A stretch of DNA of 64,000 nucleotides from Eledone cirrhosa (Eukaryota): assembly GCA_964016885.1 (NCBI GenBank), contig OZ024751.1, positions 9,920,001 to 9,984,000 of the forward strand, written 5' to 3'. Positions 7,431 to 63,800 of the stretch are shown here, piece after piece. Every line of letters begins with the position of its first letter. The stretch's first letter is position 1. The translations under genes and the position numbers were made by a program. The notes under the pieces were generated by a model. That model was not told the DNA's origin. It saw only the letters and a program-made list of their open reading frames with translations, and did not search any database.

Positions 7431-8030
7431 CTTCTACCTGGAGTTGCGACAGATAGATAGTATTAGCAATTGGAAAGACCAACGGAAACATTGTTTCCTC
7501 GGTCCGATTTGACGAAAGTCGATCGTTCCTTTATCATCCGAACGGTTTCGGTATATGGCGGAATTTATGGCAGAGGGGTTGAGAAGTTAACTCCACAAAT
7601 ACCACATGGTTCCGACTTTGGTGTCAATGCATTGCATGACGTCTAGTGCATAGCAAGAGTTCTCTACCATAAACTCAGTTTAATATTGCGTGAATAAAAT
7701 ATAAACTTTTTGGAAGATCGTTATATATATATGTGGGGGGGGGGCGTGTGTGCGAGTGCGTCTTCATATATATATATATGTGCGTGTATGTGTGTATTTG
7801 TGTATTGAAAAAGCAAATTAAAACAAAGGTCGATGTTAGTTTCTTTAGTTTCACAGATACACACATATATAATCATCATACATATTATATATGTTATGAT
7901 AACTTAAATGTTATATATATATATACACACAGATAAATCCACCAATTAATGGTAGGTTCTACGCTTGTAATATATTTTACATAGATCAATAATAGAATGG
8001 ACATACGGGGAACTACCGTATTTATTGCTA

Positions 8031-8962
8031 TCATGGTATGATAGCAATAAATACCAGAGTGTAATGTTCATCAATACAACCCCTAGAGGTGAATTAGCTT
8101 ACAAATTTAGAAGGGCCCTAGATAAACATAAACTCAATATTAAGATAGTAGAAAGACCAGGTACCTCCGTAAAAACACTTATTAGCAAGACATACCCTTT
8201 TCAAAGACCCTCATGTATAGATAAGAAATGTATAACCTGTAAAATAAGCCCCCATATTAACTGTAAAACTAGAAATGTAGTGTATAGCATAAGATGTACT
8301 GAAGGACAATGTAGAGACAAAAATATAGTGTACATAGGTGAGACAGCTCGTAGTGTAGGGGAACGGATAAATGAACACTGGCGAGACCTTCAAGATAGTA
8401 AAGAATCATCTGTACTCTACCAACATGCTAAAATAGAACACAAGGGTAAATTAGAGAACATAGAAATAAAAATAGAATCTACACACAGAAAAGACGCAAT
8501 GTTTAGACAAATCACAGAGGCAATAAACATAAAAGAATTACAACCAAAATTAAATAGAAAATATGAGTGGAACAGCAACATCACAACTTACAATTAAGGA
8601 CAAAATGAAAACACACACACACATAGAACAAACAACCAACCAGTAACATGTAAATAAACAAATAAATAAATGAACATAAACACACACAGACACCCGGATG
8701 TGGCGCATGCGCAGACTGAGCACACAACACACACACAGAAACAAAATGGCGTAGGACAGAACAAAGAAAGGAATCCCCAGTCACTGAAGAAGTCACAGAG
8801 TGTGAACGAAAAAACTATGACAATATATAAACAACTATCTGGTTGTGGAACCAACCAACCAACCAGAAATTTATAAATTTATTATAAATTTATTATAATA
8901 AATTGAAGTGAAAGCAACTGGTGCGTGTGTTTCTTATTGGCAACATGACCCTCCCAAAGTAT

Positions 8963-11900: not shown

Positions 11901-11963
11901 TTTTATCTGATGAGGACGTACTGTTGAAGATAGCTCAGTTCCTCTGAAATAAGTATAATAAAA
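11901..11963 (+). ncRNA. Hammerhead ribozyme, family E
   Basis: TTTTAT-CTGATGA-GGAC..TCT-GAAA-TAAGTA-TA-ATAAAA; homologous copy at 32258-32314. Confidence 0.6.
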
Positions 11964-14573: not shown

Positions 14574-14624
14574 AGTTTAAGCAAAGAATCGCTGCTTTCC
14601 CCCTTAACGGGATCTTCTGAAACT
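14574..14624 (-). ncRNA. Hammerhead-like motif, family B (CAGAAGA core variant)
   Basis: Minus strand: AGTTT-CAGAAGA-TCCC GTTAA GGGG-GAAA-GCA..TGC-TT-AAACT. Confidence 0.55.
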
Positions 14625-15533
14625 AAAAAAATCAATCTGTGAAAGCAGAAGTAAATATTTCGAAAATCGTTGCAACTGAAGGAAGACAGGAAGACGATAC
14701 TTTGGTTTGTGGAGACGTTCCCTGGCAAAGAACTAAAAAAACGAAGATAATACGTAATTATGTGCATCGGGGAGAACAATTACACGCAAATATATAACCA
14801 TGTTTATGGTATACCTGAAGTCGTAGACTAAAATTCTATTTAGGAAACCGAATATTCTCGGCTTCAGAGTTAAGAATAATGTACATAAATTACAGAGGTA
14901 ATTGAAATCAACAAAAATTAAATATATACATGCACGCATCCGTATACGTACATACACATGCATACGCGAAAACATCCGCCATGGGTATCCAAATACAGAC
15001 CCGTGCACAGAAACACGCGCCCACATACAAAAAGCCACGCAACGCCTGTACCCTCACACATACGAATGTATACACCAAATACACATAAAGCATATATAGA
15101 AAAAATATATATATATATGCGTGTGTGTGTGTGCGAGTATACATATAATAATATAAACGTATATAAATATACACACATAAATACACATATAACGCACGCG
15201 CACACATACCTACATGTAAATACACATATGTTCGCTAAACGTCAACCAAAACACAAATTACTCATATACACACACCCTACATACGTGCAAACCCGGATAC
15301 ACACACAAATGCAAAACTCACGTATACACATAACCATATACACATGTAGCAGTATATATAATATAATATATACGCCTATAACAAATACAATCAAATATAC
15401 GTACGAGAAAGTATACGTACCTTCACAAAACATACAGGTAATATGTACTTACCTATACAAATAAGTAATGGTATAAAGATAACATATACTTAGCTACCAC
15501 ATCAAGACGTAAATTATCTGCGTATAGTTCGTA

Positions 15534-16451
15534 CTATCCGTTAGGGTATAATGTGGGGCTGTAATGCAGGAAGGTTTTGTGCAATTTATGTTTACAAGCC
15601 GAAATTGCCTCAGATTTTTTGTTTAAGATGTGGTCATTGGCGTAGTGTATTTCCAGGGCCTCAGCGGCGCAGAGGTCACATGGTCTTTTATTTCCGTTAT
15701 ATGATCTAGCCTCAGCTAAGATCTCCCAGTGTAACCTATATTGGGTGTGGTTGTCTTTTAGACTCCAGATATAAGCTGAAAGTGACGTCATATTCCTTCT
15801 TAAAGGGTTAAGAAAAGAATGGGTATGCATGTAAAGACGTTGTTTGAATCTATTGGTGGTTAACCCAATGTAGGCCCTACGGGACGTGGGTGTTTCAACC
15901 TTACAATTACAGTTAGTACTAGCTACAGAGTTTCACGTGTTCCTACGGCTAGGTAATTTAGCTAAATTTGAAGTAGTGATGTTATGTGCACGGTTAGGAG
16001 TCGTAGAGTAAGAAATTTTAATGGTATTTCTATTAAAAATTTTATTATATTTATGTGTTGGGGGGAAATGCTTCATATTAAGGAAGAGAAAGATCTTAGC
16101 TAATGGTGTGATCACCTCCATATTATATGGTGGGTTATACCATATAATGCATCTGGCTCCATTTTTCCTAGGTCTATGCTCATACGCGGTATATGCTACC
16201 TTATCGACAAATCCACTCCGAGCAAGAGCTTTATTGTAATATGTGGAATGGTCGGTGAAAATATGCTCGTTTGTAGATAGACGGGAAAGCTTCAAAGAAA
16301 CGATTCTTACCAGGTTCTTGGTTATGCTGGCAGGATGGTTAGAATGTTTACTTATGTAATTAAGCGTATCATTCGGCTTTCTATATGGGTAGTGCAAGCC
16401 ATTCGACGAGGGTAACGTCGAGGTAATTAACGACCGAGAGGTTGGCCTCAA
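15534..16451 (-). pseudogene. Naiad-like PLE fragment 1 (RT thumb, linker, GIY-YIG)
   Basis: YPYRKPN..HSNHP, IWYNPPY..KHFP..KIFNRNTIKISYS, CNC, AYIGLT..FKQR, CDLC..E, LNKKSE..CKH; one in-frame TGA and an apparent internal deletion. Confidence 0.85.
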
Positions 16452-16664
16452 CCTGTATGGAGAGGTTGAAGCCTTTAAAGCCTTTAAAGAAGGCTGTGAG
16501 TTCTTAGTTCTTTTCTAAACCTGTCGCAAGCGCGTGGGCTGCACTTTGACATGGTCAAAAGACCGCCATCACGGTACAAACCACCTTCCTTGATAGAGAA
16601 AAGAAGAAAAAGGCCGATAAGATGAGTAACTTCCGCAGAATTGCTGGCGCCCATACATATATAT

Positions 16665-16869: not shown

Positions 16870-17960
16870 GTGGTAGAACACTGGAAGGTAATATCCGTAG
16901 TGGTAGAGCACTCAGTCCATGGGACGAGTGAGGTAGAAGTGGTTACACAACAGTTAGTTCACCATACCGAGAACAATTGTTTCACCTTAGCGGATCCTCA
17001 GCTCGTAATGGGCGTGGTTATACGGAACAGGAAGGACAACCGTGCGAACGCGCATGAGCAGAAACCCGTCACTTCACACAAGCTATACTAAAATGCGTGC
17101 GAGAGGTGTAAGGGGGATAACTGCGAAAGTCCGAAAAGTTTTTAGTTGATAAGAAAAAATATTGATGTTGTTACAATAATTCATTCAATCCGGAATTTTG
17201 TAGTTATTCAATAGGTGTTTCAAGACGTGTGGACAACGTGTGAAAAATTCATTTCTCGTGTTTAGACAATCACTATTGCATAATCTCTTTAGAATATTTA
17301 TTCGTTTGTTAATACACAGTCCACACGACGGATTTCCCCTTGCGTATGGCTTGGTCTTAGTGATGGCTTTCCATTGAATGGAGTAGTCTATACTTGAGTC
17401 CTTGAGGGACCATACGTGGCTCACGAGTTTCGTGAATGAACGTCTGTCCGGGTACCTAAAGGTCGACTGATGGTTCAGGAAACGTTCCTTAAATCGGCCC
17501 TCCGCCATGCCCACATAGGATTTGACCTCCTGTGGTTGGTTTGATCGGTTGGAAGTGACGACAGCTTCATAAATTACAACTGGTGTGTTGCATTGCTGTT
17601 GAAGGGGACAAGCTTCAGGCTTACGGCAAGAGCACCCTGGTGGGGTGTTGCTCCTAGGGCTGCTGGTGATGTGGGTCTTCATGTTCTTAGCGCAGGAGTA
17701 TCCTAGTTTTATTTGTGTCGGTTAAAGATGGAGATGTATTTATGACCTATGGGAAAGTGTCTATCTAAGAGGGCTAGAAATGTTTTCCTACATTGGTTTT
17801 AACGTTGAGTGAGAAGGGAGGTGAGAACCAGATAGTTTGTCTATTGTTGCGCTTTCTTTTCATATTGCTGTTGTTGATATTGGGAGAGTAAGTGATAGGT
17901 TGTGAGAAGCCGCTGTTAGCTAACGCCGTGTTATAGTAGGGTGCCACCCAGTCAAAGATA
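16870..17960 (-). mobile_element. Naiad-like PLE fragment 2 with 3' UTR ending at (TA)n
   Basis: WFSPPFS..TNVGK, CSCRKPEACPL..C, VIYEA..YVGMA..FKER, CGLC, LNTRNE..CPH (ORF 17185-17682). Confidence 0.88.
16968..17005 (-). ncRNA. Type-I hammerhead ribozyme, family C
   Basis: Minus strand: CGAG-CTGAGGA-T CC GCTAA GG T-GAAA-CAATTG-TT-CTCG; palindromic stem III. Confidence 0.75.
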
Positions 17961-18120
17961 GCCTGTAAAAAAGAAATAGGATTTCGCTTCAAGCATAGCT
18001 TTATACAATATGTATAAATATTTCGTATCTCCAAAGAAATATAGTTTTAGGAAGCCATAGCTATGCAAATACCAGGGGGCTAACGCCCTCTGGTGATGTC
18101 CAACAGAAGCAAGGGAGACA

Positions 18121-18164
18121 ACCGTCTATGCATTTCAGGCTTAACTGGCCTTCGTCAGGACGGT
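18121..18164 (-). ncRNA. Type-I hammerhead ribozyme, family D
   Basis: Exact reverse complement of 18376-18419. Confidence 0.85.
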
Positions 18165-32257: not shown

Positions 32258-32314
32258 TTTATCTGACGAGGACGTACTGGAAAAAAAAAACACGTTCGAA
32301 ATATATATAATAAA
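32258..32314 (+). ncRNA. Hammerhead ribozyme, family E
   Basis: TTTAT-CTGACGA-GGACGT..ACGTTC-GAAA-TATATA-TA-ATAAA; ~45 nt upstream of (TA)n. Confidence 0.7.
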
Positions 32315-32600: not shown

Positions 32601-35393
32601 TATTGTTATGCTTTGGGAGGGTCATGCTGCCAATAAGAAACACACGCACCAGTTGCCTTCACTTAAATATATTATAAATTAAATTATAAATTTAGGAATT
32701 TATAAATTTCCGGTTGGTTGGTTGGTTCCACAACCAGACGATTGTTCATATATTGTCAAAGTTCTTTCGGCACACATTCTCAGACCTCTTAAGTGACTGG
32801 GGATTCTTTTCCCTCTTTCTGTGCCTCTCCTTTGTTCTGTCCTACGCCATCTTGTTTTTGTGTGTGTTGTGAGCTTAGTTTGCGCTAGTGTTACATCCGG
32901 GTGTCTGTGTGTGTTTATATTTGTTTATTTATTTGTTTATTTACATGTTACTGGTTGGTTGTTTGTTCTATGTGTGTGTGTGTTTTCATTTTGTCCTTAA
33001 TTGTAAATTGTGATGTTGCTATTCCATTCATGTTTTCTATTTAATTTTGGTTGGAGTTCATTTATGTTTATTGCCTCTGTGGTTTGTCTAAACATTGCGT
33101 CTTTTCTGTGTGTAGATTCTATTTTAATTTCTATGTTCTCTAATTTACCCTTATGTTCTATTTTAGCATGTTGGTGGAGTACTGATGAGTCTTTTCTATC
33201 TTGGAGTTCTCGCCAGTGTTCATTTATCCATTCTCATATACTACGAGCTGTCTCACCTATGTACACTTTATTCTTATCTCTACATTGTCCTTCAGTACAT
33301 CTTATGCTATATACTACATTTCTAGTTTTACAGTTAATATTGGGCTTAGTTTACAGATTATACATTTGTTATCTATACAGGGAGGTCTTTGAAAAGGGTA
33401 TGTATTGCTAATAAGTGTTTTTATGGAGGTACCTGGTCTTTCTACTATCTTAATATTGAGTTTATGTTTATCTAGGGCCCTTCTAAATTTGTAAGCTAAT
33501 TTACCTCTTGGGGTTGTATTGATGAACATTACACTCTGGTATTTATTCTATTAACTTTATTCCTAGTTCTTTCTATTCTATTCCAAAATGTGCTCCTATA
33601 CAAGGGGCAGGTCCCATTTGTATAATTATTTACCATTTTTTCCCATTTGGTTCTGGCTCCTCTATATACTCTGATTTTATTTCTCTGATTGTAACCAGAG
33701 AACTGCATACGGTGGATGAAGTGTTGTATGTGTCTCACTAGTTGTTCGGGGTTGCACATGCGGGACACGTTTCTCATCACCCGTACCAAATCCGCAATCA
33801 GTTTGTTGATTTTGGTATGGTCCGAAACGGCTGAGTTTCGGTGGATCAGATATTTGGAAGTCATGGGTTTGGCATAATGGGAATGGAGGATTTGTTTTTG
33901 TTATTAATAGTATCTAACCGGAGCTCTGTGTCTAGTACAGGTAATCGATGGTTGGGGTGTTTGCTTGGGTAGTCTATAGTAACTCTAATACTCTGGTGGA
34001 TGGAGTTAGCTATTTGCTGGATGCTTTCCATGGTGTTTTTCTCTAATTCCTGACTGTTCTCTAGTGGGGGTGTTTTTACTACGATGTTTATATCATCAAC
34101 GTAGCGGGAGTACATTATCAGGGTTAAGGGGTTGCTGTCTTCTAATTGTTCTTTAAGTTTAAGTTTAAGTCTTTTGTCCCACCATACCATGAATAAGTTA
34201 GCTATGTCACCTGCAATGCTAACACCAATGGCTGCTCCCTCCTCTTGGGCATATGTTTTTCCATTAAATTTGAACATATGTTCCTTAAGGGTTAATTTTA
34301 TACTGGCCCCCACCGCATGTGCAATCATTTTCTTCAGTTCATCGTGGTTTTCGGGTGTCCGTATGGCTCTGGTCCACCCGTTCCATCTATCTGTGTGAGT
34401 TTTCTTGGCCATTGAGGTAATGGTAGGTGGTCTGCCTCTTGCTTGTCTTGTAGGGCACAGGTTGCTAAGGTCATATGTATCTAGATAATCATTACTATAG
34501 GTAAGTTTAAGTAGGAGTCCCAGCTCACTGGTATCAATCCCACGGAACTCAACATTGCTCTCACTGATCATTTCTACGCATTTCTCCACAGCAAAATCCA
34601 CGTCAATAGATGGATACAGGGACACAACATCCATACTACCTATTATGCAGTTTGTTAGGTCCCTAGATCGGTTACTCACGCCGATTCTGCTGAGGAAGTC
34701 CTCCGTGCTGTCACATACATCTGGGGACATTTCAATGATGGGGCGTATGATCAGGGAGAGAAAGTAGGAAAGTCTGTAGTTACTAGCAATGTTAGCTCCA
34801 AAGACTCGCCGTGTTGGTGGTCCTGTGACAGGGTCACTGCTCGTTTTATGGTCTTTTCGAAGCCCATACAATGCTGGCACGTCATTGTTTCAGGCCTGGA
34901 AGTTGTTGGCAGTCCTTTTGTTGGGCTGCATTATGTTTGTACACATCATCATATGGGCATTGAGGGTTTTTTCCCTATCCTCATTCTCTTGTGGTGTTAC
35001 TTCTCTTGTGTGAGTGATGTGGGGTTGCATTGCCTGGATGTAGTTTGACAGACTGTCAACCGACATTCTGCCAGACTTGTCTGTTGGAAAGCATGCAATC
35101 TCTCCATTACGCGAGCGCTGCATGAGCTTACGCAAGCCATTTGCAGATTTCTCTCACTGAGGAGGTCACAGAATGTGTGACGAAAGAACTTTGACATTAT
35201 ATGTCTGGTTGTGGAACCAACCAACCAACCGGAAATTTATAAAGACCTAAATTTATAAATTTAATTTATAATAAATTGAAGTGAAAGCAACTGGTGCGTG
35301 TGTTTCTTATTGGCAAGATTATCCTCCCAAAGCATAACAATATCGGTTTCAACACACGTTTTCAGATAAAGAATCTTGCTAAACAAATTCAGA

Positions 35394-38600: not shown

Positions 38601-39165
38601 ACGATATTAAACAAATGGAAACTATATTTATAAAACCATATTTATTTCGTTATATATATTTCAGGGATATCATATTAAAAATATGGTATGCCTTCCTCAG
38701 ACAAAATTCAATACATAAGCTGTTTTATAAATAATTTTTGACATACCTTTTAAATAATGCAACTTCCATTTAAAAAGTTGATTTGGTAGTGAAACTGTTA
38801 TGACAGTTATATAGAAAGAAAGACGAAGATGAGAAGAAGAAAATGAAGAGATGTATGTAAATAAAAAGAAGAAGGGGAAGAGATGTATGTAAAGAAAAAC
38901 AACAGAGCGAGATAGAGAGACATTACTTAAAAGGTATGTCAAAAATTATTTATAAAACAGCTTATGTATTGTATTTTGTCTGAGGAAGGCATACCATATT
39001 TTTAATATGATATCCCTGAAATATATATAACGAAATAAATATGGTTTTATAAATATAGTTTCCATTTGTTTAATATCGTAAATCTACTCCAGAAACTGTT
39101 GAGTGCTTTTATATCAGTTATAAAATATTTACTCGTTGTAACCCAACAATCTTAAATAAAACTTT

Positions 39166-40212: not shown

Positions 40213-40295
<83 letters not shown>

Positions 40296-40384
40296 ATAAT
40301 AATAAATTTGAAGACAAAAATCCAAAGAGGGCTCGATAAGGATAAATATATATCAAATATATAAGAACCGTAGAGCAAATATTT

Positions 40385-40837
40385 ATAAAAATAATAGATT
40401 AAAGTTTAAGCAAAGAATCGCTGCTTTCACCCTTAACGGGATCTTCTGAAACTAAAAATATCAATCTGTTAACGCAGAAGTAAATATTTCGAAAAACGTT
40501 GCAACCGAAGGAAGACAGGAAGACGATACTTTGGTTCGTGGAAACGTTCTCTGGCAAAGAAAAGAAACGACTTCATTTATACCATAAACGTGGTTTTGTC
40601 TTTGCGTGTAATTGTTTTCACCGCTCCTAATTATGACGTATTATCTTCGTTTCTTTACCGTTCTTTGCCAGGGAACGTTTCCACGAACCAAAGTATCGTC
40701 TTCCTGTCTACCTTCGGTTGCAACGTTTTTCGAAATATTTACTTCTGCGTTCACAGATTGATATTTTTAGTTTCAGAAGATCCCGTTAAGGGTGAAAGCA
40801 GCGATTCTTTGCTTAAACTTTAATCTGTTATTTTAAT
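40385..40837. mobile_element. Fold-back element carrying family B HHR-like motifs (40403-40453 -, 40769-40819 +)
   Basis: 40385-40560 inverted at 40660-40837; homologous to 14558-14790. Confidence 0.85.
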
Positions 40838-40852
40838 AAATATATATATATA

Positions 40853-46819
<5,967 letters not shown>

Positions 46820-60819: not shown

Positions 60820-63800
60820 ATTGGCAACATGACCCTCCCAAAGTATAACAATATCGGTTTCAACACACGATTTCAGATAAAGAATCTTGCTAAACAAATT
60901 CAGAAACGAAATATCGTAAGCCTTAGCCAGGCTAACAAGATACTCAAAACCACCATGTTCTGTTGTCTACGAAAAACCATAGCATCTCGACAACTACACT
61001 TCATAAAAGAATGTGCCTCGTCCCGAGTTTACACCAACCCCATCAACACCGACGTAAGAAGATTACAACTCACCAAAAAACAAGCAGATAGGCTAAAACG
61101 AACACTAATTCTAAACATAAAAAAGAAGATCTATAGAGAATTAAGTCATCAAGAAAAACATAAGCGTACCCTAATACAAGAAATAGCTAGGATCACCACA
61201 CCAAGAGAGAAACTAATATTTATAAGCCTTATACGTCCTGAAGAACAGTACATTACTCAAGAATGTGATAAGCACTTTAACAAGAAACTAAAGTGGCTTA
61301 AGCAGATAAAGCTAAATCAGGATACTATAGAGAATACCAATAGATATCCCGACAAAATTGAAGGTATAAATATGGCCGACACCTCATTAACGGATGAGTT
61401 CAACAACAACAACAACACAAATATATACGGCAACACAATAATAGATAATGATGAGTTATCTGTATTATGTCTGCCCCCGCTATTTGCGACATTCAAGAAG
61501 GTAAATATGATTAGTTGTCTGTCAGAAATAGAAAAATCATTTACAAAACTACGCTGGAGCCTCAAAAACAAAAACAAAAACAAAAGCAACAATATACGCA
61601 CACACATATACAACACACATCCCAACAGCAACAGACACGAACAACAATAACAACAACACACACACCAACAACAACAACAATAATAGCTACCCAGAAACAA
61701 CAACAACAGACACACAGACACAAACAACAATAACAACACACACAACAATAATAACACACACGGAGACAACAACACACATCAACAACAGCACACATCAACA
61801 ACAACAACACACACACATTCAATGCCTCCCACCATCACCACAATCTTAACAAACACACAGACACAGAGAACAAGTAATGACAGTAGCACAGAAATCACAG
61901 AAATAAGGGAAAGCAATAGGATTAAAAGGAGAAGGGAGACTAAGGACAAAGAAAATAACCAAGACGAACACACAGACACACAAAATAGGGTAGATAACAA
62001 CAATGAGCCAGTGGAAAGAGACAGGAGTAATTATGAGAGACATAGAAACAACCATGAGGCTGTTGGTGGAAATAGAAATAGAAACAACACAACTAACAAT
62101 AACAATAGCACTAGTACACATAAAGCAGCAGCCTGGAACTCTATGTTTTATAATCCCCCCGATAAATCGTTCGACTTGCGACGAGTCCACGCCACGACTC
62201 TACCATTTAACAAACGCACGCAATTGCCGTCGCAGGTCGATGAACAAACAGAAGCACAATTTAGTATAGCTAGATCCGAACTTAGAAATATTATAGAACA
62301 GTATAGCAAGAAGCATAATAGAATGGAGGCCCAGCAACTGGGAGAAAAATCTGCAAATGGCTTGCGTAAGCTCATGCAGCGCTCGCGTAATGGAGAGATA
62401 GTATGCTTTCCAACAGACAAGTCTGGCAGAATGTCGGTTGACAGCCTGCCAAACTACGTCCAGGCAATGCAACCCCACATCACTAACACAAGAGAGGTAA
62501 CACCACAGGAGCATGAGGATAGAGAAAAAGCCCTCAATGCCCATATGGTGATGTGGACGAATATAATGCAGCCCAACAAAAGGACTGCCAACAACCTCCA
62601 GGCCTGGAACAATGACGTGCCGGCGTTGTATGGGCTTCGAAAAGACCATAAAACGGGCAGTGACCCTGTCACGGGACCACCAACACGGCCAGTCTGTGGA
62701 GCTAACATTGCTAGTAACTACAGACTGTCCTAATTCCTCTCCCTGATCATACGCCCCATCATTGAAATGTCCCCAGATGTATGTGACAGCACGGAGGACT
62801 TCCTCAGCAGAATCGGCGTGAGTAACCGATCTAGGGACCTAACAAACTGCATAATAGGTAGTATGGATGTTGTGTCCCTGTATCCATCTATTGACGTGGA
62901 TTTTGCTGTGGAAAAATGCGTAGAAATGATCAGTGAGAGCAAGGTTGAGTTCCGTGGGATTGATACCAGTGAGCTGGGACTCCTACTTAAACTTACCTAT
63001 AGTAATAATTACCTAGACACATATGACCTTAGCAACCTGTGCCCTACAAGACCAGCAAGAGGCAGACCACCTACCATTACCTCAATGGCCAAGAAAACCC
63101 ACACAGATAGATGGAACGGGTGGACCAGAGCCATACGGACACCCGAAAACCACGATGAACTGAAGAAAATGATTGCACATGCGGTAGGGGCCAGCATAAA
63201 ACTAACCCTTAAGGAACATATGTTCAAATTTAATGGAAAAACATATACCCAAGAGGAAGGAGCAGTCATTGGTGTTAGCATTGCAGGCGACATAGCTAAC
63301 TTATTCATGGTATGGTGGGACAGTAGACTTAAACTTAAACTTAAACTTAAAGAACAATTAGAAGACCCCTTAACCCTGATAATGTACTCCCGCTACGAGA
63401 ACAGTCAGGAACTAGAGAAAAACACAATGGAAAGCATCCAGCAAATAGCTAACTCCATCCAACAGAGCATTAGAGTTACTATAGACTACCCAAGTAAACA
63501 CCCCAACCATCGATTACCTGTACTAGACACAGAACTCTGGTTAGATACCATTAATAACAAAAAACAAATCCTCCATTCCCATTATGCCAAACCCATGACT
63601 TCCAAACATCTGATCCACCGAAACTCGGCCGTTTCGGACCATACCAAAATCAACATACTGTTTGGGGATTTGGTACGGGTGATGAGAAACGTGTCCCGCA
63701 TGTGCAACCCCGAAGAACTAGAGAGACACATACAACACTCCATCCACCGTATGCAGTTCTCTGGCTACAATCAGAGAGATAAAATCAGAGTGTATAGAGG

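Follow-up and report, generated by a model that had tools for sequence, protein, structure and literature searches.

A hammerhead motif with A at position 4 is fixed in an abundant family of Penelope-like elements in Eledone cirrhosa

An inverted pair of truncated element ends

We asked what kind of element carries the sequence CAGAAGA where the core of a type I hammerhead ribozyme would have U at position 4, in a 64,000-nucleotide stretch of Eledone cirrhosa DNA (OZ024751.1, positions 9,920,001 to 9,984,000; hereafter the window). Three such motifs had been claimed in a preliminary description, and a structure scan recovered all of them in the type I layout, at 14574-14624(-), 40403-40453(-) and 40769-40819(+). 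They share an exact 16-mer (14609-14624(-), 40438-40453(-) and 40769-40784(+)), and a fourth match to it in the window needs three mismatches, which is chance level (0.56 expected). The motif at 40769-40819(+), with C3 at 40774 and A4 at 40775, has U10.1.U11.1, a 3-bp helix II and a 5-bp helix III with G15.2-C16.2, and its predicted cut lies after 40814. The motif at 40403-40453(-), with C3 at 40448, is identical to it. The third belongs to the 3' pLTR of a 5'-truncated element and carries a private G at 11.1. Stem I as first drawn was incomplete: past a 7-nt bulge on the 5' strand, helix I continues for nine further pairs that close the bulge, spanning 40753-40828(+) with pair probabilities of 0.87-1.00. 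The hammerhead fold of the window motif lies 2.2 kcal/mol above the predicted minimum, and helix Ia has a pair probability of 0.08 in context and at most 0.02 when the RNA is taken from the putative start described below. Folding was no better than that of shuffled sequences (z -0.95 to -1.57). An Rfam search of the window returned no ribozyme and only microsatellite-type microRNA matches among the 150 of 207 matches listed.

The two facing motifs do lie in a palindrome, as had been proposed, with arms of 192 nt at 40379-40570 and 40652-40843 that are 95% complementary. However, the span originally flagged (40385-40837) was too small, since the insertion covers 40290-40843 and its left arm continues through an 89-nt tail to 40290. 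Signed positions in what follows are distances from the core C3, with a natural copy (L047) as the blastn reference. On this scale, the right arm is a 5'-truncated pLTR from -205 to +69 (40567-40843(+)), which stops at the first of two fixed 3' ends, and the left arm is a 5'-truncated pLTR from -113 through the tail to +158 (40290-40561(-)). Both sit in a (TA)n target, at 40217-40291 on the left flank and 40844-41000 on the right (read to 41000). Across the family to which these arms belong, +68/69 (17 cases) and +158/159 (18 cases) account for the ends of all but one of 36 inverted partners. Inverted, truncated partners have been described for Penelope-like elements in the available part of PMC8557442, and the window palindrome is therefore ordinary: not a special element, as the preliminary description had it, but the usual inverted pLTR pair, in which two ends of a Penelope-like element, both 5'-truncated, meet head to head.

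The element behind the motif

The family, here called B, is a very abundant repeat in the 3.0-Gb genome. Fetched loci gave an intact unit of ~3.25 kb that runs from a pLTR through the motif, the 89-nt tail, an ATG at +200, a 709-aa ORF and ~1 kb of 3' UTR to the pLTR again. In intact copies the tail leads directly to 5' UTR and ATG, and intact tandem copies join ORF and hammerhead on one unit. In the window, a broken 3' half of the reverse transcriptase (RT) and GIY-YIG ORF lies at 15537-16654(-); comparison with the intact ORF showed that it corresponds to residues 314-709 at ~80% identity, with one stop and one frame change. It is linked to the motif at 14574-14624(-) by 3' UTR and upstream pLTR sequence at 14625-15533(-). 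The suggestion that this motif and the ORF at 15.5-16.7 kb belong to one element, with the motif as its terminal hammerhead, was thus borne out: CAGAAGA is the first downstream hammerhead at 53 of 54 family ORF ends, and the full-length copies, whose recovery had been advised, tie the CAGAAGA 3' end to the ORF. Two observations on copy structure may be added. Most family B pLTRs hold an internal duplication of ~140 bp (L012, L026, L028, L048), which the 14.6-kb copy in the window does not have, and in 18 of the 71 ORF-complete copies the 5' end falls between +154 and +182, close behind the second 3' end (L162-L216).

The label "Naiad-like" did not survive inspection of the intact ORF. The RT (YxDD at 346) precedes a C-terminal GIY-YIG endonuclease (YIG at 598), and the Hydra features RWR at 37 (RWK-type), DKT at 115, a CxCx5C linker at 564, CxxC at 662 and CxH at 690 are all present, whereas the Naiad hallmarks, an N-terminal endonuclease and a DKA motif, are absent from it. 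Pfam gave no score on the broken ORF pieces in the window. The (TA)n target, pLTR, tail and inverted partner are likewise those of the Hydra clade. By these ORF features and the layout of target and pLTR, we assign family B to the Hydra-clade Penelope-like retrotransposons. The clade as outlined in PMC8557442 agrees with family B in its single ORF with RT and C-terminal GIY-YIG, in the RWR, DKT, CxCx5C, CxxC and CxH motifs, in (TA)n targets, pLTR, tail and inverted truncated partner, and in a hammerhead near the 3' end that often has U10.1.U11.1. Naiads, in the same source, share the (TA)n targets, pLTRs and inverted partners; their N-terminal endonuclease, DKA motif and lack of canonical hammerheads do not apply to family B. 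In contrast to family B, with its A4, G15.2-C16.2 and longer helix III, the Hydra hammerheads of File S2 in PMC8557442 all read CUGA, the tail of the clade is given there as 30-40 bp against 89 nt in the 3.25-kb unit of family B, and the motif given there for Hydra-1_oBim is unlike that of family B. Type I hammerheads in pLTRs and opposite-strand pairs 100-700 bp apart, as in family B, are also reported in the accessible text of PMC4209133. Element type, palindrome and pLTR hammerhead are thus already known.

Position 4 in family B and its relatives

Three motifs of a kind had been counted as evidence for a shared variant. They do form one family, but they are not independent evidence, since that family comprises at least ~18,000 motifs. 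Exact 30-mers in the genome number 17,933 with A4 against 71 with U4. A flank-anchored search gave 17,046 matches, with A4 in 100 of 100 among the matches listed, and A occupies position 4 in 88 of 91 distinct copies, in place of the normally invariant U4 of the hammerhead core. The other core positions (C3, G5, A6, G8, A9, G12, A13, A14, A15.1-U16.1 and H17) are kept in 88-91 of the 91 copies per column, and the three helices surround the core in type I order. A canonical U4 sister subfamily, apparently indicated by 932 U4-reading matches, was rejected: all 12 of the matches fetched are head-to-head junctions with their axis on position 4, itself the midpoint of a 7-nt quasi-palindrome, and U4-reading family B matches appear mostly to be of this kind. 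The U4 30-mers were likewise discarded as true variants, seven of ten fetched being junctions and three isolated changes. No position-4 variant was seen at the 10% level in four sequencing runs of unstated kind, among the rows listed. A4 is fixed in family B. No second hammerhead was found inside intact elements. An upstream hairpin beginning CTGAAG was considered as a second ribozyme and rejected, being without GAAA and variable among copies, and Rfam gave no ribozyme match on one intact copy.

Variation within the motif is confined to one place. A second letter at 5% or more was found among the 91 copies in 0 of 69 paired, core and loop columns, in 3 of 7 columns of the helix I bulge and in 43 of 240 upstream columns (p 1e-5 and 5e-4 for these contrasts, the columns not being mutually independent). 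The bulge is the sole place of subfamily variation in the motif, and loops II and III vary no more than the stems do. Invariant stems leave no covariation within family B; between families the stems differ yet pair, although helices II and III were preset in the patterns used to find them. The swapped pair G15.2-C16.2 replaces a C at 15.2 with pairing retained.

Relatives were collected with a metagenome scan, which gave 79 loci at ~40% identity. Their ORF-linked hammerheads (53 of the 79 loci) read U4 in 54 of 54 cases and have C at 15.2 in all 54; U10.1.U11.1 occurs in 25 of the 54 and is thus a trait of the clade. A4, the exchanged bases of the 15.2-16.2 pair and the greater length of helix III set family B apart from these relatives. 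One of the relatives (L102) has, by eye, the hammerhead given for Penelope-1_NV in PMC8557442.

Five further Hydra families, C, D, E, F and H, were found in the same genome. Family C, 40-45% identical to family B in protein, has the same A4 core with different stems: its 77 matches comprise 69 A4, 5 C4, 2 G4 and 1 U4, and position 7 varies. Group E (2,029 matches) shows 89 C4, 9 U4, 1 A4 and 1 G4 among the 100 matches listed. Family D (5,922 matches) has U4 in 99 of 100 and family F (143 matches) in 93 of 100, with 7 A4, again among the matches listed; these two and a tandem array family, mostly U4, were therefore dropped as further A4 families. Family H has a U3-A8 core that keeps U4, and its helices II and III are both long; Rfam found no ribozyme in its pLTR. 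The hammerhead of a family I was searched for and not found.

Some details of these families were recorded in passing. Family C (L229, L239-L246, L327-L346) has G10.1-C11.1, and its helix I can form only if an A is bulged out. Group E (L277-L296, L307-L326) contains several subfamilies with different helix II and a small A4 subgroup (L254-L256). Family H (L347-L361, L377-L406) is young, with copies 98-99% alike and a helix II of ~55 nt. A U3-A8 hammerhead at L372:2706-2750 and L060:7528-7606 resembles family C in its 3' half, and the tandem array (L232-L238) repeats a unit of ~430 bp that contains a hammerhead, A4 and U4 versions of the unit being interspersed.

A FastTree tree was built on partial rows from the own-genome families, the two nearest database proteins (57% and 50%) and 31 metagenome relatives, 12 near-duplicates of 43 metagenome rows having been dropped. 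It placed B, C, E, F, H and the two database proteins in one clade (0.999), grouped C with E (1.0) and put B near H with a support of 0.35 (B-H identity 54-55%). The nearest sister of family B in this tree, at that support, would thus be H, which keeps U4. With C grouped with E and B near a U4-bearing family, the tree suggests that U4 was probably lost at least twice; one loss with later reversals is the alternative.

RNA 5' ends at the cut site and at an apparent cap

Insertion junctions were used as a record of RNA 5' ends. Of 85 family B loci, 71 were usable (12 were without the start region and 2 were duplicates), and none of these ORF-complete copies starts within 5 nt of the predicted cut site, while 42 read through it. 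Cut-site starts number 2 among the 30 ORF-complete copies of family H; the contrast of 0/71 and 2/30 is not significant (p 0.086), which we count against a weak or silent motif. Short palindromes around the family B site number 386, and the 50 listed include no case with both arms ending there without microhomology and one blunt join, explained equally well by a 4-nt palindrome. Nineteen of the 50 centre on +44, a quasi-palindrome 3 nt downstream of the cut, where ends cut at +41 could also anneal, again a point against a weak or silent motif. For family H, an eye count gave 7 of 37 listed loci with both arms within 2 nt of the site without microhomology and a further 5 blunt; the difference from family B (p ~0.002) is indicative only, and the extra base at family H junctions may be a decayed templated CpG base. 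The pile-up at the GUC site of family H suggests cutting in vivo. In family D, with a canonical U4 core and a minimal helix III, only 1 of 50 listed is blunt at the site. A cut footprint is therefore detectable, as H shows, but a canonical core is no guarantee of it, as D shows, and a missing footprint is no proof of a silent ribozyme. For group E the same test had 5 loci, which is too few.

A second footprint lies where helix I begins. There are 2,178 short palindromes whose centre falls in the 5' half of the motif; 10 of the 50 listed centre on position 4, and in ~18 of the 50 (by eye) an arm stops exactly at A-5 (the A located 5 nt 5' of C3), in most cases preceded by G instead of the genomic T. 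In 3,519 copies the base preceding A-5 is other than T, with G in 60 of 100 listed; one base further upstream the corresponding figures are 1,007 copies and G in 17 of 100 listed (p 5e-10). All 20 fetched A-5 cases are true junctions, 16 with G, and they have no common upstream exon. Against a special origin of the G, it could derive from the neighbouring arm in ~6 of the 16. RTs can copy a cap as an extra G, for which our literature search found no paper, and the A-5 site agrees with what we take to be the initiator consensus. The extra G is thus likely to be a copied cap and A-5 a capped transcription start, to judge from the junctions. In the window, this putative start, placed from other copies, falls at 40769(+). 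Between it and the family B ORF there is no upstream ATG. Drosophila Penelope has an internal promoter in about the same position (PMC2377424). The window's own arms reach upstream of A-5 and would therefore derive from a longer RNA, by read-through or from a tandem. Some copies have C for T just before A-5 (e.g. L046:6425(-)), shared by neighbours, possibly a subfamily with a better initiator match.

The reading that we prefer, at a probability of about 55%, is that RNA starts with a cap at the first base of helix Ia, that cleavage by the A4 core is weak or absent, and that RT, primed at +69 and +158, copies RNA that is intact, the cDNAs joining head to head in (TA)n. RNA polymerase II would start at the A five bases before C3. 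U4A would lower cutting, so that the 5' leader keeps its cap and the RNA its priming sites behind the 3' pLTR. Of two RT molecules, primed at +69 and +158, each would either extend to the capped end, where it adds a G, or stop short of it, and joining of the two cDNAs would yield palindromes such as 40290-40843, whose arms would come from a longer RNA. What maintains the fold could be some remaining cleavage, binding of a protein or overlap with the promoter. On this view the family B hammerhead probably cuts poorly or is silent, and lies at a likely capped start. A mutational scan found low activity for single substitutions in the CUGA turn (PMC9901934, in part), U4C cut poorly in vitro and was still viable in viroid infection (PMC3088659), and ribozyme mutants of an Anolis element were not impaired for insertion in vitro (PMC11167929). 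The invariance of the remaining core and stems and the A4 core of family C with different stems, however, are what selection for activity would produce, and were counted against a weak or silent motif.

For this reason it is possible, though we doubt it, that U4A is a tolerated core variant that cuts usefully through contacts between loop II and the bulge or with help from the element protein, with cut ends perhaps kept out of the genome by circle religation. Assisted activity of this kind stays in consideration mainly on account of the lack of change elsewhere in the core across family B subfamilies and the recurrence of A4 in family C, where position 7 varies; C4 in group E, the G15.2-C16.2 pair that keeps pairing, the normality of U10.1.U11.1 in the clade, the viroid U4C, an Anolis ribozyme that cuts only with protein (PMC11167929) and the equally footprint-free, canonical family D are in keeping with it. 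What speaks against it is that H, with a similarly long helix III, has the footprint that B does not, that helix Ia is predicted to be weak and that the CUGA turn was intolerant of change in the published scans available (PMC9901934). A further, tentative reading holds that position 4 is free in a subclade of animal Hydra elements, A4 and C4 having been fixed at least twice, with U4A cutting at a tuned low rate and the capped helix I start replacing cleavage in family B, a change that thousands of insertion junctions would record.

It is improbable that the ribozyme is dead and its fold irrelevant, the sequence being frozen as an internal promoter and RT-binding leader and A4 hitch-hiking from a small inversion. 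Loops II and III as invariant as stems, position 4 on the quasi-palindrome axis where the fetched U4-reading junctions fall, and folding no better than in shuffles would all fit, as would Drosophila Penelope, whose internal promoter with a downstream element lies near the corresponding place (PMC2377424); yet variation is confined to an unpaired bulge between two invariant helix strands. Least credible is retention of A4 as the splice acceptor (pyrimidine run and CAG) of a pLTR intron, since, for all that two AG dinucleotides follow the pyrimidine run and a D. virilis Penelope intron stops where helix I begins (PMC4209133), the 20 junctions have no common upstream exon, no intronless join occurs among 71 5' ends or among the joints listed from four runs, and the C4 of group E creates no acceptor.

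A close parallel to family B is the Poseidon element PAc of Anolis (PMC11167929, in part), which has two internal RT start sites that define its tail, matching the family B 3' ends at +68/69 and +158/159, AT-rich targets and uncut RNA as the main template; it differs in belonging to another clade, in a canonical core that cuts with protein and in that no cap footprint is described in the portion available. The accessible portion of PMC4209133 reports low activity for hammerheads of Penelope-like elements and includes the U3-A8 variant, as in family H, and no position-4 variant; the helix III of family B is long enough for a monomer fold. Among the natural core variants of PMC3088659, U4C and U10.1.U11.1 are known and tolerated, and U4A is not named in the text available; those are rare single cases, whereas the family B variant is fixed in ~18,000 copies. 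Our literature search, of incomplete coverage so that earlier cases are possible, found no natural U4A hammerhead, nor recurrence of U4A beside C4 families or a cap-type footprint at helix I.

These findings bear on the role of hammerheads in Penelope-like elements. One genome here holds sister U4, A4, C4 and U3-A8 families whose junctions record how RNA 5' ends form, at the cut site in family H and at an apparent cap in family B, which offers a comparative test of whether cleavage matters. Searches limited to CUGANGA miss at least ~18,000 motifs in this genome and would class family B as ribozyme-less. Other elements share the window. A family D Hydra element lies at 17001(-) and 17185-17992(-), comprising the 3' part of the ORF and, downstream of it, the canonical U4 hammerhead. 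Canonical type I hammerheads form inverted pairs at 18122-18163(-)/18377-18418(+) and 38646-38705(-)/38975-39034(+) and occur singly at 11902-11962(+) and 32258-32314(+). Further RT and GIY-YIG fragments, from other Penelope-like families, are heaped at (TA)n tracts (33861-34889, 44051-45076, 41169-41498, 7971-8597 and 61687-62733).
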